Below, one piece after another: positions 2,171 to 11,552 of a stretch of 11,552 bases of DNA. Positions within the stretch are counted from its first letter, which is position 1, and the number at the start of each line of letters is the position of its first letter. The position numbers and the translations under genes were made by a program. The notes beneath the pieces were generated by a model. That model saw only the letters and a program-made list of their open reading frames with translations, did not search any database and had not been told where the DNA came from. This DNA is from Verrucomicrobiota bacterium (GTDB taxonomy: Bacteria > Verrucomicrobiota > Verrucomicrobiia > Chthoniobacterales > UBA6821), in the NCBI GenBank assembly GCA_008932965.1, contig WBXG01000057.1, positions 1-11,552 on the forward strand. Direction: 5' to 3'.

Positions 2171-2198
2171 ACACTTCAGTATGAAATATTCGGGCTAA
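2171..2198 (+). repeat. Solo right terminus of the TTARCCCGGATATTTCAT repeat family, with a possible minimal two-terminus remnant from 2157
   Basis: Positions 2171-2194 (acacttcagtatgaaatattcggg) are identical over 24 nt to 9148-9171, the right end of the full copy at 8989-9175. The upstream stretch cccgaaatcttata (2157-2170) is a degenerate inverted partner. The terminal CTAA (2195-2198) read on the minus strand is TTAG, and it contains the TAG stop of ORF 2195-2977. Confidence 0.8.
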
Positions 2199-2977
2199 TC
2201 CTCGGAATCGGTGATTCCTCCTTGAAGTTGATCAACCTCTTCGGAAGCACGTGAAAGTTGTTGTATACCAAAAGCAAACTCGCCTTGGAGATCTCTCGAC
2301 TTTCTATGCATGATTGTATACTGATTTTGATTTTCAGGTGGTATGATCACTCCTTTATCTAAGCCTTCATTAACGACCTCTTTATAGTAATACATAGCAC
2401 TTTGTATTTCACTAAGAGAAGCCTTAGATTCTTGAATCGTTTCTGAAATAAATCTTGGAAGATCCTCTTCTTGCAATAGTTCAGTTGAATTTAAGGGTCG
2501 GTAGAGATGTGTTCTTTGATTTAAGTAATTTGATGCTTCGGTGATGACCTCTTTAGCTCTGTTAAGGAGACGATCTGCTTTTTCGAGTTTTTCTCCCCAG
2601 CTAGTAAGCGCATCATGGAGCTTTTCTTCATGGGTAGGTATGATTTCATCATTCTTCAGAAGATCTTGTGAGGAGTTAGTGGAGATAGGAGTAAATTTTT
2701 CTAATGGTGAGGAGCCTCTCTTAGTGGGGGATTCCTCTTCTGTAAATTCAGAAGAAGTTGTGTCAATGGATTGACTACTAGGTGTCACACTTCTATCACT
2801 AGGTGTCACACTATGAGGGCTCTGAAGTCCAATGGGCCGAAAAGGAGATGAATTGCTAAGGCTTTCTATCGATTGAGAATTGAAATGACCTATCGCTGGG
2901 TTGCTACTAGTTTCGGGTTCTAAAGAGTGTGAACCAGAGTCTCTTGAAATAGAAGTTGTTGGTATTTTTGCATTCAT
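2195..2977 (-). CDS. Hypothetical protein with a Ser/Thr/Pro-rich low-complexity N-terminal half and a charged, probably helical C-terminal half
   Basis: 260-aa ORF starting 15 bp downstream of gltX on the same strand. I see no recognisable catalytic motif, signal peptide or TM segment. The first ~110 aa are S/T/P/E-rich. The last ~150 aa are rich in E/K/L/Q (EKLHDALTSWGEKLEKADRLLNRAKEVITEA...). Calling it coding rests on ORF length and operon position only. Confidence 0.55.
   Translation of the reverse strand: MNAKIPTTSISRDSGSHSLEPETSSNPAIGHFNSQSIESLSNSSPFRPIGLQSPHSVTPSDRSVTPSSQSIDTTSSEFTEEESPTKRGSSPLEKFTPISTNSSQDLLKNDEIIPTHEEKLHDALTSWGEKLEKADRLLNRAKEVITEASNYLNQRTHLYRPLNSTELLQEEDLPRFISETIQESKASLSEIQSAMYYYKEVVNEGLDKGVIIPPENQNQYTIMHRKSRDLQGEFAFGIQQLSRASEEVDQLQGGITDSED
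2777..2812 (-). repeat. In-frame 21-bp direct duplication inside the hypothetical ORF
   Basis: actaggtgtcacact occurs at 2777-2791 and again at 2798-2812, a 21-bp period. It encodes the duplicated peptide SVTPS(DR)SVTPS in the low-complexity N-terminal half. Confidence 0.85.
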
Positions 2978-2992
2978 CTAATGAGGTTTTTT

Positions 2993-4312
2993 TTAATGAG
3001 TTCCTGCAAGTAATCGTTGGATCGTTTTCTCCCGTCCTAGGATTTCAAACATTTCGTAGAGACCGGCTCCTACGGAACGTCCACTCACCGCGACGCGTGC
3101 AGGATGCACGAGTTCACCAGTTTTTACTCCAAGCTTCGATGCAGTCTCTTTCAACCTAGCCTCAATGGAAGTGGCCTCCCAGTCTTCAAGCAACAATAGA
3201 GCCTCTGCTAAAGCTTCTAGGCGGTTATGAGCATCTGGACTTGAGAGATTTTTTGCAACTGCAGTTTCATCATAAGGAAAATCATCGCTGAAAAAACAAC
3301 GCACCCAATCGGGAAGATCAGGGAGTGATTTGATTTTGGGTTTTACAATGGAGAGCACTTTTTCAAGCATCTCCCAGCTCTCCCAAGTGATACCTGCTTT
3401 TTCTAGAAACGGGAGTGCAAGTTCGGTATAACGGGCCAAATCCATATGTAGTAAATATTGGCCATTCATCCAAAAACATTTGTCGACATCAAAAGCAGCA
3501 CTACGGCGATTGATATTGTGAAGTTCAAAAAGTTGGATTACTTCGGCTGTCTCAAGGATCTCACGATTATCTTTTGGAGACCATCCTAAGAGGGAAAGAT
3601 AGTTGCGCACTGCTTCTGGAGCATATCCTTCCTGTGGGTAAATTCCCATGTTGGCCCCTTGATCTCGTTTGCTCATTTTACTTCCGTCACGATTCAAGAT
3701 GAGTGGGGTATGGGCAAAATGGGGAGGCTCTGCCCCAAGAGCTTTGTAGAGTTCCAAATGTTTTGGAGTATTTGAAAGATGATCTTCACCTCGAATGACG
3801 TGACTAATCTGCATCTCAATATCATCGACAACGTTGACAAAATGAAAAATCCAAGAGCCATCAGGACGACGGAGTGTAATATCAGGATGAGTTCCAGGAT
3901 TAGTGAGATCAAACTCAATACTTCCACAAATTAGGTCATGAACGATCACTTTTTGACGCGGGGAGCGAAAGCGGATCGCCCCCTTTTCTTCATAGAGGTG
4001 CCCTCCCATCTCCAGACGCTGGAGATACTCTTCGTAAATCGCATTGCGTTCACTCTGATAGTAAGGACCATAGTTTCCTCCTTTTTGAGGACCTTCATCC
4101 CAGTCCAACCCTAGCCAATGAAGTCCATTAAAGATGATCTGCTTTGCCTCCTCAGTATTACGACTATGATCGGTATCTTCAACTCTTAGAATAAATGTTC
4201 CAGCATGCTTGCGTGCGTAAATCCAGTTAAAAAGAGCTGTGCGAGCACCCCCTACGTGAAGAAGGCCCGTGGGTGAGGGAGCAAAACGAGTGCGAATAGG
4301 ACGAGTTGGCAT
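2993..4312 (-). CDS. gltX: Glutamyl-tRNA synthetase (class I)
   Basis: 439-aa ORF. It has the HIGH-type motif PSPTGLLHVGGARTALFNW, the KMSKS motif GSKMSKRDQG, and the conserved GluRS blocks RVEDTD and GPYYQSER. Confidence 0.92.
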   Translation of the reverse strand: MPTRPIRTRFAPSPTGLLHVGGARTALFNWIYARKHAGTFILRVEDTDHSRNTEEAKQIIFNGLHWLGLDWDEGPQKGGNYGPYYQSERNAIYEEYLQRLEMGGHLYEEKGAIRFRSPRQKVIVHDLICGSIEFDLTNPGTHPDITLRRPDGSWIFHFVNVVDDIEMQISHVIRGEDHLSNTPKHLELYKALGAEPPHFAHTPLILNRDGSKMSKRDQGANMGIYPQEGYAPEAVRNYLSLLGWSPKDNREILETAEVIQLFELHNINRRSAAFDVDKCFWMNGQYLLHMDLARYTELALPFLEKAGITWESWEMLEKVLSIVKPKIKSLPDLPDWVRCFFSDDFPYDETAVAKNLSSPDAHNRLEALAEALLLLEDWEATSIEARLKETASKLGVKTGELVHPARVAVSGRSVGAGLYEMFEILGREKTIQRLLAGTH

Positions 4313-4385
4313 AGTTTTGGAAGATAATAGTTCCCTACCAGTAATACAGATCCAAGAACAATGCCAGCTATAACTTGATTTTCCG

Positions 4386-4659
4386 TTAACCCAAATATTT
4401 CATCCTGATCGTGACGAGGAGGCCTCGAAGGCTGATAGAGAACCACCGGCGGTTGGGAGACCGCGGGGGAGACTGCCGGAGACTTCCTTGAGGCAGCCCT
4501 GAAAGGGCGAGACGAGCTGGAGCGAGCGAGTCAACGCAGGCGAGTATTTTGACTCAGGGCTGTATGAGTCCCTGCCGCCCAAGTCAAAATGGAGTCTAGC
4601 ACAGCATCCCACTGACTACCCGGCTTCCTTAGTAGATCAGGATGGAATATTTGGTTTAA
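4386..4659 (-). mobile_element. MITE-like non-autonomous element, copy A (274 bp, opposite orientation to copies C and D)
   Basis: The left end is ttaacccaaatatttcatcctgatc. The reverse complement of the right end is ttaaaccaaatattccatcctgatc, giving a 25-bp TIR with 2 mismatches. Both ends are flanked by TA within TTAA. The reverse complement of the interior (attttgacttgggcggcagggactcatacagccc) matches copy C (attttgacttggacagtagggactcc) and copy D (ggcagtaggaactcatacagccc). The cagccttcgaggcctcctcgtcacgatcagg arm matches copy B. The core is about 60-68% GC against about 45% for the flanks. No credible ORF is present. Confidence 0.85.
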
Positions 4660-4811
4660 TCTGCGGGCTAGAAAAAATGATGAACCAATTTCAAGATGAA
4701 ATGACTCGTTTTTTGTGGGTCGAAGGAGGGTCAGGAGAAAATGTGAATAACTTGCGAGTAACCAGTACCTCAAAAATTGTCTCAACAGTTCTCTTTTTGT
4801 GATTGACGGTA

Positions 4812-4856
4812 GTGTGAAATAGTGGGAGAAAGTGGGGGTAAATGGAGCGAAATGGT
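4812..4856 (+). promoter_or_regulatory. Putative MraZ operator made of five direct repeat boxes at exact 10-bp phasing
   Basis: The boxes are GTGTG (4812), GTGGG (4822), GTGGG (4832), ATGGA (4842) and ATGGT (4852), each followed by an A-rich 5-nt spacer. The array ends 31 bp upstream of the mraZ ATG. MraZ proteins are known to autoregulate through phased TGGGN/GTGG-type direct repeats in the dcw promoter region. Confidence 0.65.
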
Positions 4857-4887
4857 TAAATTTACCATTCCTCAAAATTAGTAGTTT

Positions 4888-5340
4888 ATGTCCTCCTCTC
4901 TTCCCACATCATTGATTTACGCTGGCACTTTTGAGCGTGTCATGGATGGGAAGCATCGTGTGACCATCCCAGCAGCTTGGTTGGCACAGGGAATTAGCGA
5001 ATTTCACGCGATTCCAAATCCAAGCGAAGAATGTCTTATTGTGATGCCTCCTCATGAATTTCAAGTGATCGAGGAACGTATTGAACAGAGTGGGGCTGCT
5101 GCTCCAGAACGTCGTAAAGCGATTCGACAGTTTTATAGTCGTGCACGTGCTATCTGCGCAGATGCTCAAGGACGGATCCTTTTTTCCGAAGAACAATGTA
5201 GTCCACTCCAACTCAAAGGAGAGGTGGTGCTTGTTGGTGGCCGGAGTCGTTTTGAAATCTGGAATGCAACAAGGTGGCATGCAGTTGCTACCGAGGAGCA
5301 TGATTCTTTCAGAAATATAGCTCATCTCATTGGACTTTAA
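4888..5340 (+). CDS. mraZ: Transcriptional regulator MraZ
   Basis: 150-aa ORF in first position of the dcw cluster. It has two SpoVT/AbrB-like half-domains with the MraZ DxxxR signature: MDGKHRVTIPAAW and DAQGRILFSEEQ. The start could instead be the TTG at 4912, which would give the usual short N-terminus (M)IYAGTF. Confidence 0.85.
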   Translation: MSSSLPTSLIYAGTFERVMDGKHRVTIPAAWLAQGISEFHAIPNPSEECLIVMPPHEFQVIEERIEQSGAAAPERRKAIRQFYSRARAICADAQGRILFSEEQCSPLQLKGEVVLVGGRSRFEIWNATRWHAVATEEHDSFRNIAHLIGL

Positions 5341-5547
5341 TTTTCTCGAAATATGTCCTTTATTCCACTTCCACGACTCTTTCAATCCTCTCTGTTCCAA
5401 AAAATGGAAAGAGAGATGAGTCCTTTCCTCTGGTGCCACGGCCGAAAGTCGTTATCCCTCCCTTCTCACAAGCCATCACCTTCCTTTGATTGTACTAGCG
5501 ATCGAGTATTTTCTTTGAGAGCACCTTTTCAAAAGAAAGCTGTTCCT

Positions 5548-6516
5548 ATGGCAAAAAAGAAGGAGACCCAAGGGAAGATGGATGAGCACAAGCCATTTGT
5601 CCATAAATCGGTATTAGCTAAGGAAGTCGTTGATTTTTTGCAACCTAAACCAGGAATGACCATTCTAGATGGAACGCTTGGGGGTGGGGGGCATACCGAG
5701 TTGTTTTTAAAAGCAGGAGCAACTGTTATTGGACTCGACCGAGATCCTGAGGCTCTTGCTTTTGCTTCAGAGCGGCTGAAAATATATGGTGACCGTTTTA
5801 TTCCTAAAGAAGGAAATTATGTGGATGCAGATAAATATCTCTCAGCCATTGGTATTCCAAGAGTGGATGGAATTTTGCTCGATTTAGGAGTCTCTTCCTA
5901 TCAGCTAGATACTGCTGAAAGAGGATTTTCTTTTCAAAAAGAGGGTCCACTTGACATGCGCATGGGTAATTCTTCTACAACTGCTGCAGACATTATTAAT
6001 AGCGCCCCTCTGAGTGAGTTGCTTTCTATTTTTCGCAATTATGGCGACGAGCCACGTGCCATGATGATGGCGACACGTATCATTCGAGAGCGTCAGCATC
6101 AAGTCATCACAACAACCACACAACTATCATCAATCGTGGCTGCTGGAATGCCTCTAGGACCGCGTCACCCAGCAACACGTATTTTTCAAGCATTACGTAT
6201 TGCTGTGAATGAAGAGATTAGCCAGCTTGAAGAGGCACTACCTCGACTTTCCAATATTCTAGAGCCAAAAGGACTGATCGGAGGCGGACGTCTGGCAATC
6301 ATTACCTTTCATTCTCTGGAGGATCGCCCCGTTAAAAGATTCTTTCGTAAACATGCAGCCGTTGAGCTCGATGACCCAACATGGGCAGCACCTCGACCCA
6401 ATCCCGATCGTATTTTTACTCTTCCTAAAAATTGGTCATTAGAAGCTTCCCCAGAGGAGATCTCCAAAAATCCACGAGCTCGTAGTGCTAGATTACGGAT
6501 GGCCGAGCACCTTTAA
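5548..6516 (+). CDS. rsmH: 16S rRNA (cytosine1402-N4)-methyltransferase RsmH/MraW
   Basis: Conserved RsmH blocks are present: HKSVLAKEVVDFL, the SAM-binding DGTLGGGGH, LDLGVSSYQLD, RGFSF, GPLDMRM, FHSLEDRPVK and NPRARSARLR. The ORF is open from 5353, but the first 65 codons are low-complexity and lie upstream of where RsmH homology begins. ATG 5548 gives 322 aa, and ATG 5578, which follows AAGGAG at 5561-5566, is the alternative. Both give a normal length. Confidence 0.85.
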   Translation: MAKKKETQGKMDEHKPFVHKSVLAKEVVDFLQPKPGMTILDGTLGGGGHTELFLKAGATVIGLDRDPEALAFASERLKIYGDRFIPKEGNYVDADKYLSAIGIPRVDGILLDLGVSSYQLDTAERGFSFQKEGPLDMRMGNSSTTAADIINSAPLSELLSIFRNYGDEPRAMMMATRIIRERQHQVITTTTQLSSIVAAGMPLGPRHPATRIFQALRIAVNEEISQLEEALPRLSNILEPKGLIGGGRLAIITFHSLEDRPVKRFFRKHAAVELDDPTWAAPRPNPDRIFTLPKNWSLEASPEEISKNPRARSARLRMAEHL

Positions 6517-6547
6517 GGATCGATGTTCCTAATAACATTTATTTTTT

Positions 6548-6579
6548 CTAGCCTGCATATTTCATACAAATCGTGACAG
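6548..6579. repeat. Solo terminus of the same repeat family in the rsmH-ftsL spacer
   Basis: ctagcctgcatatttcatacaaatcgtgacag aligns with the left end of copy B, ttagcccggatatttcatgctgaatcgtgacga, at roughly 25 of 32 positions. The alignment includes the atatttcat and aatcgtgac blocks. No inverted partner is visible nearby. Confidence 0.7.
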
Positions 6580-6619
6580 TTTTTTCACCTCCCTATCAAA
6601 AAAAGCGATTAATACAACA

Positions 6620-6994
6620 ATGAACCGTCTTCATACACAACCCTCTAATCGTCGTCGGACAAATAATGGTATTGAGGTCCCTTTGCTCGCCCAATGGCTT
6701 GTGGTGTTTTTTATGCTCGGCTTGTTAGGTCTCTTTTTTGTCTACCTAAAAAATCAGCAACATGCACTTGGAGAACAGACACGCCTTGTAGAACAAAAAA
6801 TAACAGAACTACGTGCGCATCATGATGCCCTTAATGCAAAAGTCACTGCACTCACCTCTCGTGGAGCATTACAGCGACGACTCGATGAAAAATATTTGGA
6901 TCTTATCCCAATTACAGAAACAGCAATCGCAAGAACAAATCCTACTTCTAACTCAAGTGAAGAGAAAGCAATGAGGACGGCTTCATTTCCTTAG
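6620..6994 (+). CDS. ftsL: Cell division protein FtsL-like (bitopic membrane protein with a coiled coil)
   Basis: 124-aa ORF in the canonical position between rsmH and ftsI. It has a basic N-terminus (NRRRTNN), one hydrophobic TM segment (LLAQWLVVFFMLGLLGLFFVYL), then a heptad-like helical region (QTRLVEQKITELRAHHDALNAKVTAL). The call rests on topology and synteny, not on sequence motifs. Its TAG stop (6992-6994) lies inside the terminus of repeat copy B. Confidence 0.65.
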   Translation: MNRLHTQPSNRRRTNNGIEVPLLAQWLVVFFMLGLLGLFFVYLKNQQHALGEQTRLVEQKITELRAHHDALNAKVTALTSRGALQRRLDEKYLDLIPITETAIARTNPTSNSSEEKAMRTASFP

Positions 6995-7170
6995 CCCGGA
7001 TATTTCATGCTGAATCGTGACGAGGAAGCTGCAAGGGGAGATGGATTTTTTGTTGAGCTCGAAGTCTCCTCGAGCAGGCGCACGCAGCCTTCATCAGCCT
7101 TTATCACTAGCCTTATCCCATCAGCCTTCGCAGCCTCTTCGTCACGATCAGGGTGAAATATCTGGGCTAA
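6991..7170 (+). mobile_element. MITE-like element, copy B (180 bp) with long imperfect TIRs of about 45-50 bp
   Basis: The left end is ttagcccggatatttcatgctgaatcgtgacgaggaagctgcaagg. The reverse complement of the right end is ttagcccagatatttcaccctgatcgtgacgaagaggctgcgaagg, matching at about 44 of 50 aligned positions. It is flanked by TA on both sides (tTAg...cTAa). A central palindrome gagctcgaagtctcctcgagc is present. The overlapping ORFs 7017-7202(+) and 6991-7230(-) are translated repeat sequence, not genes. Confidence 0.88.
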
Positions 7171-7213
7171 ACCTTCTTTCCTTCTTTGTAGGTTCCTACT
7201 AACATTTAAGGTT

Positions 7214-8992
7214 GTGCAAAAAAAATTCACCTCTGCAGCACTGGGTCAACGCATTGGATTAGTCTGTTCTTTTGTAGCATTGATTTTTACCTTTTTTGCA
7301 TTTCGTCTCGTCAATCTTCAGGTGGGAGGACATGAAAAGTTTTCTCATCTTGCAGCAGAAAAGCATGGTGTAAAGCAGCCTATTGCTGCAGTACGAGGAA
7401 ATATTTTTGACCGACATGGAGAGATCTTGGCAGTCAATGTTCCCGTTCGAACGGTCTATGCAGATGGAACCCATATCAAGGACCCTTTGGCGCTTGCTCA
7501 TGTAGCAGCTCCTTTTCTTGGTCTTCCAGAAAAAGAATTGGCTCTCAAACTTGCTAGCAAACGTCCTTATGTGGTTATTCGCTCCGGTATTTCTGAATTA
7601 GATGCTACCGCAATGATGCGAGCCCTGGAGGAATCGAAACTCTCTGGACTCTACTTACAGCCTGGTTCTGAGCGATCTTATCCTAATGGAAAAATGCTCT
7701 CTCATGTGCTCGGTTTTGTCGATCATAGCGGTCATGGAATCGATGGTATTGAACGTACTTTTGACAAAGAATTAGCTGGGCGGGATGGCTATCGTCATAT
7801 TGAACATGATCGAAAGGGACTTGAAATTGTGCTCTATCGAGGCCAAGAAGAACCAGTAATTAATGGAACCAATATTTATCTCACAATCGATATGGGTCTT
7901 CAGGCGATTCTAGAAAAACAGCTTGATAGTGCTATGGAGACCTATAAGCCAGCTGGAGCAACGGCGATTTTAGTAGATCCCAAGACGGGGGAGATTTTAG
8001 CAATGGGAAGCCGTCCTAATTACGATCCCAATCATTACAGTGAGGCAACGCCTGAAGAGCTTCGTAATCGTGCTGTTACTGATATGTACGAGCCGGGTTC
8101 CGTTTTTAAAGTGGTTGCTGCTTCCGGTGCTATCAATGAAGGAATTGTAACAGAGAACAGTACTATTTTTTGTGAGCATGGGTCTTTTTTATATGGAGGG
8201 AAAATTCTTCATGATGCCCATGGAGATTATTTTGGAGATCTTTCTGTGAGGGATGTATTAGTACACTCTTCCAATATCGGTGCAGCTAAGATTGCGATGA
8301 AAATGGGAGATACAAAGTATTACGAGTATGTAAGGCGTTTTGGTTTTGGTGAAAAAACCAACATTCCCTTACCTGGAGAAATTTCTGGTCTCGTGAATCC
8401 TCCGGCACGCTGGGATAAATTAACTATCACTCGTATGGCCATGGGACATGCCATTGCGGCAACTCCGATTCAAGTGGTCATGGAGATTGCGTGTATTGCC
8501 AATGATGGGAAATTGATGGTACCCCAACTCATCCATCATCGGGATCAGGAGAAGGAGAAAATGGAGCCGATAGTGCGCCGTGAGATTATTTCTTCGAAAG
8601 TAGCCGAAATTATTAATGGGGCTCTCATCGATGTTGTTGCGCGTGGAACGGCTCAACATGCTAAAATGGACGGGTACTCCGTTGCTGGAAAAACTGGAAC
8701 AGCACAAAAAATTAATACGCATGGTGGTTACTTAGAGGGGCGTTACATCGTCTCCTTTGCTGGCTATTTTCCGGCTGAAAAACCACGGATTGCTGGTCTT
8801 GTTGTGATTGACGATGCTCGTATTGGAAGTATTGCAAATTTTGGAGGTCTTGTGGCTGCCCCTATTTTTTCGAAAATCGGAGAAGCTTCCGCACGTTATC
8901 TTGACCTGCTTCCAAGCTCAACAGGAGCTTCAGTAAGTAAAGAAAATGCTTCATCCCCTTCTTCAAGTATTCCTAAAGTGGAAGCCCCTTAA
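7214..8992 (+). CDS. ftsI: Peptidoglycan D,D-transpeptidase FtsI (class B PBP, PBP3)
   Basis: 592-aa ORF with a GTG start. It has an N-terminal TM anchor (IGLVCSFVALIFTFFAF), a PBP dimerisation region, and the three transpeptidase motifs: SxxK (GSVFK), SxN (HSSN) and KTG (GKTGTA). The TAA stop (8990-8992) lies inside the TTAA terminus of repeat copy C. Confidence 0.9.
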   Translation: MQKKFTSAALGQRIGLVCSFVALIFTFFAFRLVNLQVGGHEKFSHLAAEKHGVKQPIAAVRGNIFDRHGEILAVNVPVRTVYADGTHIKDPLALAHVAAPFLGLPEKELALKLASKRPYVVIRSGISELDATAMMRALEESKLSGLYLQPGSERSYPNGKMLSHVLGFVDHSGHGIDGIERTFDKELAGRDGYRHIEHDRKGLEIVLYRGQEEPVINGTNIYLTIDMGLQAILEKQLDSAMETYKPAGATAILVDPKTGEILAMGSRPNYDPNHYSEATPEELRNRAVTDMYEPGSVFKVVAASGAINEGIVTENSTIFCEHGSFLYGGKILHDAHGDYFGDLSVRDVLVHSSNIGAAKIAMKMGDTKYYEYVRRFGFGEKTNIPLPGEISGLVNPPARWDKLTITRMAMGHAIAATPIQVVMEIACIANDGKLMVPQLIHHRDQEKEKMEPIVRREIISSKVAEIINGALIDVVARGTAQHAKMDGYSVAGKTGTAQKINTHGGYLEGRYIVSFAGYFPAEKPRIAGLVVIDDARIGSIANFGGLVAAPIFSKIGEASARYLDLLPSSTGASVSKENASSPSSSIPKVEAP

Positions 8993-9175
8993 CCCGGATA
9001 TTTCATACCGATTCTGCTGCGTCTTGCGAACACCTGATGGATACTGAGTCAGCCTCCTATTTTGACTTGGACAGTAGGGACTCCACCAATCCGGTATCAC
9101 CATCCTTCGTCCTTCTTGTGCTAATAAGCTTTGCACGGCGCCTCATGACACTTCAGTATGAAATATTCGGGTTAA
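8989..9175 (+). mobile_element. MITE-like element, copy C (187 bp)
   Basis: The left end is ttaacccggatatttcataccga. The reverse complement of the right end is ttaacccgaatatttcatactga, matching at 21 of 23 positions. It is flanked by TA within TTAA at both ends. The interior is homologous to copy D and to the reverse complement of copy A. An 8-T run (9176-9183) follows immediately, then the murE ATG at 9186. Confidence 0.88.
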
Positions 9176-9185
9176 TTTTTTTTCT

Positions 9186-10706
9186 ATGATTTTACAAGAT
9201 CTCCTCTCCTTTACAGAAGTTATTTCAATGAGTGGTCCAGCTGATGTTGGATCGACTCTTGACATCAAGCAGCTCTGTTTTGATTCACGAAAGGTACTAC
9301 AAGGGTCGCTGTTTTTTGCATTGCCGGGTACTCACAAAAAAGGGAGCACTTTTGTGCAAGAGGCAATGGAACGAGGAGCTGCAGCTGTGGTGAGTGAAGA
9401 AATAATCAATCAAAATTCTCAATGTAAGGTTCCATTCATTTGTGTTCCCAATGCTCGACGCTCCATGGCTGATCTAGCGTGTGCATTTTATCATTTTCCG
9501 AGTCAAACATTATCTCTCTGTGGCGTTACAGGAACTAATGGGAAGACAACCTCAAGTTTGCTGGTGCGTCATATTTGTGAAACTAATGGACGTGCGTGTG
9601 GTCTTCTTGGAACCATAGAATATGTTTTACCAGGACGAGTCGAAGAGGCCTCTCATACAACACCTGAATCCATTGGAATTCAATCGATGCTTGCAGAGAT
9701 GAGGGGCGGGGGATTTAAGGGAGTTGCTATGGAGGTTTCAAGTCATGCTCTTTCCCAAGAAAGAGTAAGAGGAATCGAATTTGATGTTGCCATTTTTACA
9801 AATCTTACACAAGACCACCTTGACTATCATGGATCGATGGAGGCTTATTTTAATGCCAAGGCAGCGCTGTTCGAATCCCTTCCCTATCAAAAAACAAAAC
9901 GAGGACGTGCTGTTATTAATGGAGACGATCGTTATGGACGTTTGCTCTTAGACCGTTTGGAGAAACTCCCCATCAAAGTTCCCACGATCACGTATGGACA
10001 ATCGAGTGGAGTTGATTTTCGTGCGACCAATATTGAGTATACTCCGAGCGGTACCATTTTTTGTTTAGAAGCTCGAAAAAGAAGCTACTTAGTGAGATCC
10101 CCATTGATTGGGATTTTTAATGTTTATAATGTTTTAGGAGCACTTGCCTCTGCTAGCTCTATGGGTTTAGAACTCCGTCGTGCGATTAAAGCACTTGAAA
10201 CAGCACCGCAAATTCCAGGGCGCTTACAACGAGTGGAGGGAAAGAAAAATTATCAAGTCTTTATTGATTATGCTCACACCCCTGATGCTCTTGAAAATGT
10301 TCTTCGTTCTTTACAGTACTTGCGGCCTGGTCGTCTTGTGGTTGTTTTTGGATGTGGGGGGGATCGCGACCGTGGCAAGAGGCCGCTCATGGCAGCTGCA
10401 GCAGAACGCTATGCAGATCACATTATCGTCACTACTGATAATCCACGCGGGGAGGATCCTACGGCGATTATCAAAGAAGTGACTCAAGGATTTAGACAAC
10501 AAAAATATTGCTGTATCTGCGATCGACGGGAGGCCATTTCTAGAGCTATCGAACAAGCATTGCCATATGATATTATTGTTATTGCTGGTAAGGGCCATGA
10601 GACCTACCAAGAGGTGAATGGAGTGCGATCTCCTTTTGATGATGCTAAGGTAGCCCAACGAGCAATGCTTCTGAATCAAAGGCCTGAACCCGAGAAGTGG
10701 AGCTAG
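9186..10706 (+). CDS. murE: UDP-N-acetylmuramoyl-L-alanyl-D-glutamate--2,6-diaminopimelate ligase
   Basis: 506-aa ORF with the Mur ligase P-loop GVTGTNGKTT, the conserved blocks HTTPES, EVSSHAL and FTNLTQDHLDYHG, and the DNPR motif (TTDNPRGEDP) associated with meso-DAP specificity. The TAG stop (10704-10706) lies in the terminus of repeat copy D. Confidence 0.92.
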   Translation: MILQDLLSFTEVISMSGPADVGSTLDIKQLCFDSRKVLQGSLFFALPGTHKKGSTFVQEAMERGAAAVVSEEIINQNSQCKVPFICVPNARRSMADLACAFYHFPSQTLSLCGVTGTNGKTTSSLLVRHICETNGRACGLLGTIEYVLPGRVEEASHTTPESIGIQSMLAEMRGGGFKGVAMEVSSHALSQERVRGIEFDVAIFTNLTQDHLDYHGSMEAYFNAKAALFESLPYQKTKRGRAVINGDDRYGRLLLDRLEKLPIKVPTITYGQSSGVDFRATNIEYTPSGTIFCLEARKRSYLVRSPLIGIFNVYNVLGALASASSMGLELRRAIKALETAPQIPGRLQRVEGKKNYQVFIDYAHTPDALENVLRSLQYLRPGRLVVVFGCGGDRDRGKRPLMAAAAERYADHIIVTTDNPRGEDPTAIIKEVTQGFRQQKYCCICDRREAISRAIEQALPYDIIVIAGKGHETYQEVNGVRSPFDDAKVAQRAMLLNQRPEPEKWS

Positions 10707-10866
10707 CCCGGATATTTCATACTCAATCTATTACGGCTTGTGGAAAGTTCACTATTACTGCGTTGGTCGCGAGTTGTTATGAAGGGAGGCAGTAGGAACT
10801 CATACAGCCCGGCATCACAATCCTTCGCCCGTCTTGAAGTAATGGACTTTGCACGCCTCCTCATTT
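10703..10866 (+). mobile_element. MITE-like element, copy D (about 164 bp, right terminus lost or degenerate)
   Basis: The left end ctagcccggatatttcatac is intact. The interior is co-linear with copy C: ggcagtaggaactcatacagcccggcatcacaatccttcgcccgtcttg against gacagtagggactccaccaatccggtatcaccatccttcgtccttcttg, and gactttgcacgcctcctcat against gctttgcacggcgcctcat. No ...tatgaaatattcggg right end follows. Confidence 0.8.
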
Positions 10867-10924
10867 TATAAACACAATAAAATCTTTTACGTTCTTCTCT
10901 TAAATTTTGCTTCTTCTAATCCTA

Positions 10925-11552
10925 TGGATCCTACCTCCCTTTCTCAAATAGCTGCTTGGTGTGGTGCTGAAATTCTTAGCGGTAATCCTGAGGCTCTTGT
11001 ATCTGGGGTTTCTCATGACACACGTCATATTAAAATGGGTGAACTCTACATTGCACTGCGTGGAGAGCATTTTGATGGCAATGTTTTTATGAAGGAGGCT
11101 CAAGAAAAGGGAGCTCTCGGAGTGCTCTGCGATGGATCCCCACCACAGAATCTTCCCTCTGATTTTGGAGTGTTACGCGTGACTGACACTCTTCAAGGAT
11201 TGAGATCCCTGGCAACAGCATGGCGTGGAGCGTTATCTCTGCGATCGGTTGTCTTAACGGGAAGCAATGGAAAAACAAGCACTAAAGATTTCACTACTGC
11301 ACTGTTAAGTTTTTTTCTTAAGGTTACTTCTACTCAAGGTAACTATAATAATCACATCGGGCTTCCTCTCTCGATTTTAAGGGCTTCTAAGAGTGATCGG
11401 GTTGCAATATGGGAAATTGGAATGAATCATGCTGGTGAAATAGCTCCTTTGGCTTCCATTGCTAGGCCAGACATAGGGATCATTACTAATATTGGAACTG
11501 CTCACATCGGTTTTTTGGGATCACGAGAGGCCATTGCCCAGGAAAAAGGAAA
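10925..11552 (+). CDS. murF: UDP-N-acetylmuramoyl-tripeptide--D-alanyl-D-alanine ligase, partial (N-terminal ~209 aa; continues past the window end)
   Basis: Hand translation from ATG 10925 gives MDPTSLSQIAAWCGAEILSGNPEALVSGVSHDTRHIKMGELYIALRGEHFDGNVFMKEAQEKGA...VVLTGSNGKTSTKDF...GNYNNHIGLPLSIL...WEIGMNHAGEI. These are the MurF N-terminal domain, the P-loop TGSNGKTSTK and the NNxIG(L)P block. The position after murE fits dcw synteny. It is absent from the ORF track because no stop falls inside the window. Confidence 0.9.

Follow-up and report, generated by a model that had tools for sequence, protein, structure and literature searches.

Why should a repeated element sit exactly on the stop codons of essential cell-division genes? 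The question is raised by an 11.5-kb contig of a Verrucomicrobiota bacterium (WBXG01000057.1), which was analysed over its whole length of 11,552 nucleotides and is called the window below. It holds a dcw (cell-division) cluster of a Chthoniobacterales-like member of the Verrucomicrobiota, and its ftsL, ftsI and murE genes, along with one open reading frame (ORF) on the minus strand, all stop where a repeat begins. The best explanation, and one that is probably right as a whole, is that the repeats are MITEs (miniature transposable elements with inverted repeats), non-autonomous derivatives of an IS1380-family insertion sequence (IS) that is widespread in Verrucomicrobiota. They duplicate a target of four bases, YTAR (pyrimidine, T, A, purine), and the coincidence with stop codons would come from the sequence of that target together with survivorship.

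A preliminary description of this DNA had taken the repeats to be transposon-derived, to be inserted at a duplicated TA in the manner of IS630/Tc1-mariner elements, and to supply the stop codons of their host genes. The first of these claims holds. The other two had to be changed.

The repeats

At all four stops the repeat that begins has inverted termini CCCGGATATTTCATAC, and the stop codon is formed by the three bases just outside the element core. The gene ends had been read correctly: ftsL ends in cct-TAG-cccgga, ftsI in cct-TAA-cccgga, murE in agc-TAG-cccgga and the minus-strand ORF in gat-TAG-cccgaa. So had the brackets, which are TTAA...TTAA for copy A, TTAG...CTAA for copy B and TTAA...TTAA for copy C. 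When up to 3 mismatches are allowed, the window has 10 matches to the 14-mer CCCGRATATTTCAT, where shuffles give 2.0 +/- 1.3. Repeat finding and alignment define six copies or fragments, A to F, with termini common to all. Four of the six (B, C, D and E) lie at stop codons; A and F do not.

Copy C has a 179-nt core (8993-9171). Its left terminal inverted repeat (TIR) is perfect (CCCGGATATTTCATAC) and its right TIR has 1 mismatch. To its left lies a TTAA at 8989-8992 on the plus strand, in which TAA (8990-8992) is the stop of ftsI, a PBP3-type transpeptidase gene (7214-8992, plus strand). To its right the TTAA is repeated at 9172-9175, followed by 10 nt and then by the ATG of murE (9186-10706, plus strand). 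The stop of murE is in turn the left flank of copy D, a truncated copy (10703 to about 10865) with flank CTAG (10703-10706, TAG being the stop), a left TIR and some 160 nt of interior; its right end is lost.

Copy B, flanks included, covers 6991-7170. It consists of TTAG (6991-6994), whose TAG is the stop of ftsL (6620-6994, plus strand), a core at 6995-7166 and CTAA (7167-7170). Its 16-nt termini have 1 mismatch on the left and 3 on the right, and its flanks are degenerate; this is an old, diverged copy. Fragment E is a right end only (about 2150-2198), ending at 2194 and followed by CTAA (2195-2198) as its flank. Read on the minus strand the flank is TTAG, whose last three bases, TAG, form the stop codon of a conserved hypothetical ORF (2195-2977, minus strand).

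The true element ends are CCCGGATATTTCATAC...GTATGAAATATCCGGG, with TIRs of 23-25 nt in the window repeats. Core lengths are 172-179 nt for B and C and about 266 nt for A. Related genomes have mostly copies of 176-180 nt, plus a second class of 257-300 nt. The ORF list holds no transposase-sized ORF within the window copies. The repeats are thus short, lack transposase coding, have TIRs and a target-site duplication, and occur in many dispersed copies, as MITEs do.

The target duplication

How much of the target is duplicated? GTDB species genomes were pattern-scanned with an 18-mer of the terminus, which gave 100 blocks. Of these, 56 element-bearing blocks of 8 kb come from four related Chthoniobacterales/Spartobacteria metagenome-assembled genomes (MAGs; CAIWMF01, JAIPKF01, JBMOFC01 and DATEBV01). 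The remaining blocks are single chance matches in unrelated taxa, and viral contigs scanned with the terminus pattern gave just three isolated single matches. In addition, orthologous loci were retrieved from three relatives with MurE homologues as anchors: a sister species (L002-L005, MurE 89% identical to that of the window), L006/L007 (77%) and L008 (72%). The 56 blocks, the window, L002 and L006 together hold 211 ends in about 426 kb of related sequence. Complete copies with both ends, from the related MAGs and the same three loci, number 78.

The four bases outside the core read YTAR at 179 of the 211 ends (TTAA 80, CTAG 52, TTAG 28, CTAA 19). TA brackets every end, and this alone would suit an IS630/Tc1-mariner-type MITE that duplicates only TA and completes TAA or TAG with its own terminal purine, regenerating the stop. 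Copy B would suit it too: in TTAG...CTAA the inner bases are complementary, like the TIRs. Two full-length elements (L121 and L147) are likewise flanked by CTAA/TTAG.

The larger set of ends says otherwise. Within single ends, the identity of the first flank base is strongly tied to that of the fourth (odds ratio 7.8, p=4e-10), a link that would not be expected between bases of separate origin, one in the target and one in the element. Read on one strand, the flanking 4-mers are identical in 43 of the 78 complete copies (TTAA/TTAA 25, CTAG/CTAG 12, CTAA/CTAA 6). The TIR-symmetric pair TTAG/CTAA occurs once in 78, and that one is copy B. If complete copies, L079 and full-length elements are taken together, 12 pairs of non-palindromic flanks are direct repeats, as against 3 symmetric pairs. 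The base adjoining the core can be A or G among near-identical copies of one subfamily, which counts against its being part of the element.

Orthologous empty sites hold one copy of the 4-mer, with the length otherwise unchanged (L063 against L018, CTAA against CTTA; L054 against L040; ftsL in L002, CCT-TAA-G). The length of such a site is compatible with both models and cannot discriminate between them, as the number of bases lost is equal whether an element is taken out with TA or with 4 bp.

The duplication is 4 bp long, with consensus YTAR and a preference for the palindromes TTAA and CTAG. The purine after the TA is therefore target DNA, and the stop codons in the window are most likely host DNA duplicated as target, not element sequence. 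Of the proposed TA duplication it stands that the duplicated target contains TA; its length is four bases and not two. That the element regenerates the stop does not hold in the window, since the purine in question belongs to the target. The suggestion that copy B turned a TAA into a TAG lacks support as well: it leaned on the lone pair in 78 that is compatible with 2 bp, in an old and diverged copy. What does survive is that insertion at a stop leaves the protein unchanged, TAA or TAG being retained.

No target motif beyond YTAR was found around occupied sites. TTAA is commonest in AT-richer hosts (80 of the 211 ends), and CTAG dominates in GC-rich ones; TTAG and CTAA serve as targets too. 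Where a MITE has a perfect duplication that is not a palindrome, it reads CTAA/CTAA in 6 cases (7 if L079 is counted) and TTAG/TTAG in none. As these are the same event on opposite strands, the imbalance is probably chance (p about 0.02-0.03), and TTAG/TTAG does turn up among full-length elements. An element that carries its own YTAR without duplicating anything was also considered and ruled out, because non-palindromic flanks are direct and not inverted, and because empty orthologous sites keep one copy.

The parent family

Which transposase made these insertions? In a Pedosphaerales-type Verrucomicrobia MAG (L038, 4916-6716) there is an 1801-bp element with perfect 16-nt termini and CTAG/CTAG flanks that encodes a DDE_Tnp_1_4 / NF033539 IS1380-family transposase. 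All 16 bases of CCCGGATATTTCATAC are matched at both of its ends, and in many metagenome copies. For the transposase of elements sharing the window repeat termini, the Pfam model DDE_Tnp_1_4 matched at 2.7e-97. The NF033539 model, with a cut-off of 180 bits, scores the L038 protein at 244 bits and those of L117, L125 and L148 at 333-342 bits, over model positions 2-418 of 419. Similarity of the autonomous elements to the window repeats stops at about 17 nt.

A search of metagenome contigs with the L038 protein yielded 80 loci, including 33 complete elements of 1.7-2.2 kb with termini CCCGGATATTTCATA... and transposases of 457-471 residues. Identical YTAR flanks surround 21 of the 33 (CTAG 15, CTAA 3, TTAG 2, TTAA 1). 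Some of these contigs are chimeric across the 1.75-kb IS: in L126 the left flank is that of L129 and the right flank that of L125, and L145 compares to L147 in a similar way.

The IS630/Tc1-mariner assignment had to be given up, because autonomous elements with identical termini encode NF033539 IS1380 transposases. No IS630-type partner was found: all four elements scanned with family models (L038, L117, L125 and L148) are IS1380, and the rest of the full-length set was recovered by its similarity to the L038 transposase. The piggyBac Pfam model gave no match to the transposase at the thresholds used, where the IS1380 model did. IS5, which has the same Py-T-A-Pu target of 4 bp, was rejected as a parent since the partners encode IS1380 transposases. 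A candidate autonomous element at L094 4478-5768 was also rejected, as its ORF is membrane transporter-like, its ends are poor and it lacks YTAR flanks.

A tblastn search with the IS1380 transposase against all MITE-rich MAG blocks gave a sole match, L100, from a Spartobacteria MAG. This block opens with the 3' end of a transposase gene, followed by the same terminus and then CTAA. The window copies may well have been mobilised by the transposase of a full-length copy in the same lineage.

Stop codons

Are stop codons hit more often than other sites? Occupancy was counted by masking the elements, deleting each block with one flank, re-calling ORFs of at least 100 codons and classifying all YTAR sites, excluding the window and its orthologous loci. 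YTAR sites at stop codons are occupied in 15 of 102 cases (14.7%), other intergenic YTAR sites in 43 of 837 (5.1%), those 1-60 nt downstream of a stop in 8 of 171 (4.7%), and those inside genes in about 0.5%. The odds ratio of stop-codon over other intergenic sites is 3.2 (p=7e-4), or 3.3 when stratified by 4-mer, and the comparison with sites 1-60 nt downstream gives p=0.006. Measured against all permissive TA dinucleotides, 15 of 64 (23%) are at stops where 6.8% would be expected (p=2e-5). The enrichment at stop codons for which the preliminary description proposed a test is borne out on both measures.

The enrichment is real but modest. Insertion blocks lie away from stops in 77 of 92 cases; about 16% abut a stop, against four of six copies in the window.

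A simple mechanism would account for this. The cognate transposase would integrate at YTAR, preferably TTAA or CTAG, and duplicate all four bases. Wherever a pyrimidine precedes a TAA or TAG stop, the four bases make up a YTAR. On insertion there, the gene's own stop would stay in place as the left copy of the duplication with the element directly 3' of it, and the second copy, with the whole downstream spacer, would remain joined to the next gene. Protein and downstream start region would be unchanged, and therefore such insertions should outlive purifying selection better than those at other YTAR sites. The effect would be strongest where the genes of an operon are closely packed, with spacers of just 7-60 nt.

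On this basis we infer that each stop-codon copy in the window inserted at a pre-existing stop. The excess at stops would be mainly the work of purifying selection and not of active targeting, because only an insertion at the stop site spares both the upstream ORF and the whole downstream spacer.

Several points weigh against this account. Copy B, with TTAG...CTAA, fits a 2-bp TA duplication better, and a 4-bp duplication needs two later substitutions there. Flanks are non-identical in 12 of the 33 full-length elements, of which chimeric contigs explain only part. No within-species empty allele was found in metagenome contigs or strain comparisons: the former gave 0 matches for an ftsI stop followed by a murE start within 4-20 nt, and in the latter the strain overlaps (L002-L005, L006/L007 and window/L001) are identical, with no presence/absence polymorphism. 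For the enrichment statistics, genes were called simply as ORFs of 100 codons or more. The excess of stops over sites 1-60 nt downstream is not obviously due to gene disruption alone. Finally, neither the window's species nor any of the four MITE-rich MAGs yielded an autonomous IS1380 copy, and the partnership with the parent therefore rests on termini shared with elements in other Verrucomicrobiota. MAG assemblies usually lose multi-copy ISs.

Comparison with relatives

What did these junctions look like before? In L008 there is no copy at any junction, and spacers are 7-23 nt. L006 has no copies at the junctions equivalent to those of the window, and has copies elsewhere. The sister species L002 is without B, D, E and F; copy D is also absent from L006 and L008. 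At the site of fragment E, L002 has a gap of 7 nt to aroE.

In L002, ftsL ends in CCT-TAA at the very codon where the window has CCT-TAG, which fits insertion at a pre-existing stop. The preliminary description expected orthologous loci to reveal both the ancestral stop and a TA duplication; L002 has a stop at the same codon, and the duplicated unit is 4 bp and not TA.

Past the ftsL stop, L002 continues with about 125 nt of unrelated spacer, and L006 has a 144-nt element-free spacer between ftsL and ftsI (the regions compared are window 6995-7196, L002 7856-8019 and L006 8094-8237). The copy B site in the window is without the spacer of L002, and the insertion was therefore accompanied or followed by loss of host spacer. 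The idea that excision would restore compact junctions works for copy C, where it gives TAA, 10 nt and ATG, but not for copy B, where the relatives have long spacers.

L002 also has a copy between ftsI and murE (9784-9961), and there the FtsI frame continues for seven codons within a degenerate left terminus, up to a TGA in that terminus (...SNPNSSH*). In this case the element itself supplies the stop. The FtsI C-terminal tails of the window and L002 cannot be aligned, and in its interior the L002 copy is closer to window copy D than to copy C.

Both genomes have a long-form copy between gltX and mraZ (window 4386-4659, L002 5267-5539), in opposite orientations. These are either independent insertions at one site or the result of an inversion between the inverted termini. 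Outside the window, stops that abut element ends are found for murG and gltA in L002, and for a PIG-L-family gene in L006.

In-frame copies

Insertion at YTAR can also meet a gene in mid-course. With TAR in frame, the insertion site is a stop codon and the protein is unchanged. With YTA in frame, the element is read through and adds 60 residues for the common 176-nt form. The third phase adds a tail of about seven residues that ends at a TGA in the terminus, as in FtsI of L002.

In nine of the 78 complete copies, none of them in the window, the frame of a surrounding ORF of 249-1194 codons stays open across the element. The insert is 60 codons (180 nt) in seven of them, because a 176-nt core plus a 4-bp duplication makes 180 nt, and 87 and 93 codons in the others. 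The copies are L018 2312-2487, L043 747-922, L047 292-548, L054 3111-3385, L060 3871-4046, L074 276-451, L098 1176-1351, L063 2488-2663 and L096 4458-4633. All nine use the sole open phase, in which YTA is a Leu codon and the insert reads L[A/T]RIFHTD...EI[S/C]GL. The host gene in L063 has an orthologue in L018 without the insert.

Other features

NCBIfam models place purB, aroE (1214-2134), the conserved hypothetical ORF and gltX (2993-4312) on the minus strand of the window. On the plus strand follow mraZ, rsmH, ftsL, ftsI, murE and the start of murF. The nearest MurE proteins are from Chthoniobacterales MAGs. For the FtsI ORF as taken from its GTG start, an exact-protein look-up gave no record.

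Copy A, of the long class with a core of about 266 nt, occupies 4386-4659 with TTAA/TTAA flanks, inverted with respect to the other window copies. It lies in the divergent gltX-mraZ intergenic region, where there is no stop codon. Directly past its right TTAA, positions 4660-4671 read TCTGCGGGCTAG, apparently 8 nt left over from the right end of a different element, with a CTAG flank. A similar remnant, ATATGCAGG, stands ahead of the gltX/mraZ copy in L002. Fragment F, which the preliminary description had overlooked, is a solo left end at 6548-6577 that consists of a CTAG flank and CCTGCATATTTCATAC...; it lies 33 nt past the rsmH stop and abuts no stop codon.

Head-to-head elements often share a single TTAA or CTAG (...CCGGG-TTAA-CCCGG...), as at L040 338/343, L054 3106/3111, L044 5503/5508, L073 6490/6495, and L103 175/180 and 6682/6687. 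Such pairs suggest that elements have newly inserted into the flanks of copies already present. By a rough count, their frequency seems no higher than the number of such sites would predict.

Shorter elements with the same termini and YTAR flanks also exist, at about 130 nt (L041 6850-6980, L079 6622-6751) and as a minimal palindrome of 35 nt (L059 56-90). Their hosts are other Verrucomicrobiota (an Amazon MAG and Limisphaerales) and one Planctomycetia MAG, so that the family defined by these termini extends beyond the present clade.

In public annotations and plain ORF lists, 'genes' of 54-114 amino acids are placed in or across the repeats (L002 5327-5575, minus strand; L006 13110-13274, plus strand; window 4531-4875, minus strand). 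These are probably spurious.

Alternative explanations

The boldest reading makes the system a bacterial counterpart of piggyBac. IS1380 would cut and paste at TTAA or CTAG with seamless excision, stop codons would serve as reversible safe harbours, and the 60-residue inserts would be exapted in the Leu (YTA) phase. If this were true, MITEs could occupy and vacate the stop codons of essential genes without a trace, and would not be mere survivors of selection. This is possible, if unlikely.

Rather unlikely is active targeting, in which the transposase prefers a YTAR at a stop codon for mechanistic reasons, such as a step in composition or bendability where coding sequence gives way to non-coding, or a coupling to the termination of transcription or translation. 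Stop sites are occupied 3.5 times as much as those 1-60 nt downstream, even though insertions at the latter would likewise spare the upstream gene. The sister species has independent-looking insertions at the same junctions, in other orientations or from other subfamilies. On the other hand, a targeting transposase would have to be reconciled with the lack of any consensus beyond YTAR at occupied sites, and with the 77 of 92 blocks that lie away from stops. Selection can also explain the gap, as sites just past stops often hold the ribosome-binding region of the next gene or a terminator, and it is evidently strong, with genic sites depleted about 10-fold.

Could the copies at gene ends be useful instead? 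They might be kept as RNA hairpins that modulate the stability, processing or read-through of dcw mRNA, a role that has been suggested for ERIC and Correia elements. Copies are numerous in the dcw clusters of the window and of L002, and the predicted hairpins are very stable: copy C folds into a long TIR-closed hairpin of -61.3 kcal/mol (z=-5.1), and copy B into one of -92.8 kcal/mol (z=-8.8). Reviews report effects of MITE RNA structures on the transcripts next to them (PMC2229807). Such hairpins come automatically with inverted termini, however, as they do in any MITE. Positions are not conserved either, since L002 lacks B, D, E and F but has other copies, and D, E and F are truncated and decaying. 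An Rfam scan of the whole window at E<=1 gave no match, and a promoter and terminator scan of 4300-11000 found fewer sites than in shuffles, none of them inside the elements. A role of this kind is improbable.

Duplication of TA alone by an IS630-type transposase is highly improbable, in view of the coupled flank bases, the predominance of direct over symmetric flanks, the varying base next to the core, and the fact that all autonomous elements with these termini that were scanned are IS1380.

Implications

An IS1380-derived MITE with a YTAR target would offer a simple reason why an essential, tightly packed operon can fill up harmlessly: the four-base target contains the two commonest stop codons, and its duplication leaves both neighbouring genes intact. 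The survey also brings to light a MITE family that is abundant in little-studied Verrucomicrobiota of freshwater and soil and makes up about 5% of the sampled blocks. The family is tied to IS1380, prokaryotic relatives of piggyBac, with the same signature of TTAA and CCC...GGG ends. On the practical side, such repeats break MAG assemblies, lead to false calls of small ORFs and can be translated into inserts of 60 residues; annotators should mask them.

Comparison with known systems

Elements of the IS1380 family have target duplications of 4-5 bp and termini that begin with CC. The 4-bp duplication found here falls within the range usually quoted. A duplication of 5 bp has been reported for one member, IS1247 (PMC3281130). 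The full-length partners share the transposase models of the family, which includes ISEcp1, IS1247 and ISPme1, and its size of 1.7-2.2 kb. The window copies differ in being non-coding derivatives of 170-270 nt in a Verrucomicrobiota host, and characterised members are not known to have a strict 4-bp YTAR target.

The ends of the eukaryotic piggyBac read TTAA|CCC...GGG|TTAA, so that a TTAA duplication and CCC...GGG termini are common to both systems. The present element is bacterial, however, and its target is relaxed to YTAR, including CTAG and CTAA/TTAG. Seamless excision is what marks piggyBac; for the elements here, no excision event was observed. IS1380 transposases have been placed as distant prokaryotic relatives or an outgroup of piggyBac (PMC10813416, PMC10140906).

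IS5 duplicates the tetranucleotide Py-T-A-Pu, most often CTAG (PMC5493358). Target and duplication length are thus the same as here, but transposase family and termini differ.

Among MITEs, the Correia/NEMIS, ERIC and RUP elements are likewise short and multi-copy, with inverted termini, mostly intergenic positions and long hairpins in transcripts. RUP is linked to an IS630-type partner. The elements of the window differ from these in their 4-bp duplication and IS1380 parent; the others have TA at their termini (PMC2229807). In-frame fusions of MITEs and genes have been reviewed for Rickettsia (RPE, the Rickettsia palindromic elements) and other bacteria (PMC2229807, PMC3184786). Their in-frame ORF inserts resemble the 60-residue ones described above, but they belong to a different element family, and here one phase is open. 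The window repeats thus add an IS1380-derived MITE family to an already known class of elements.

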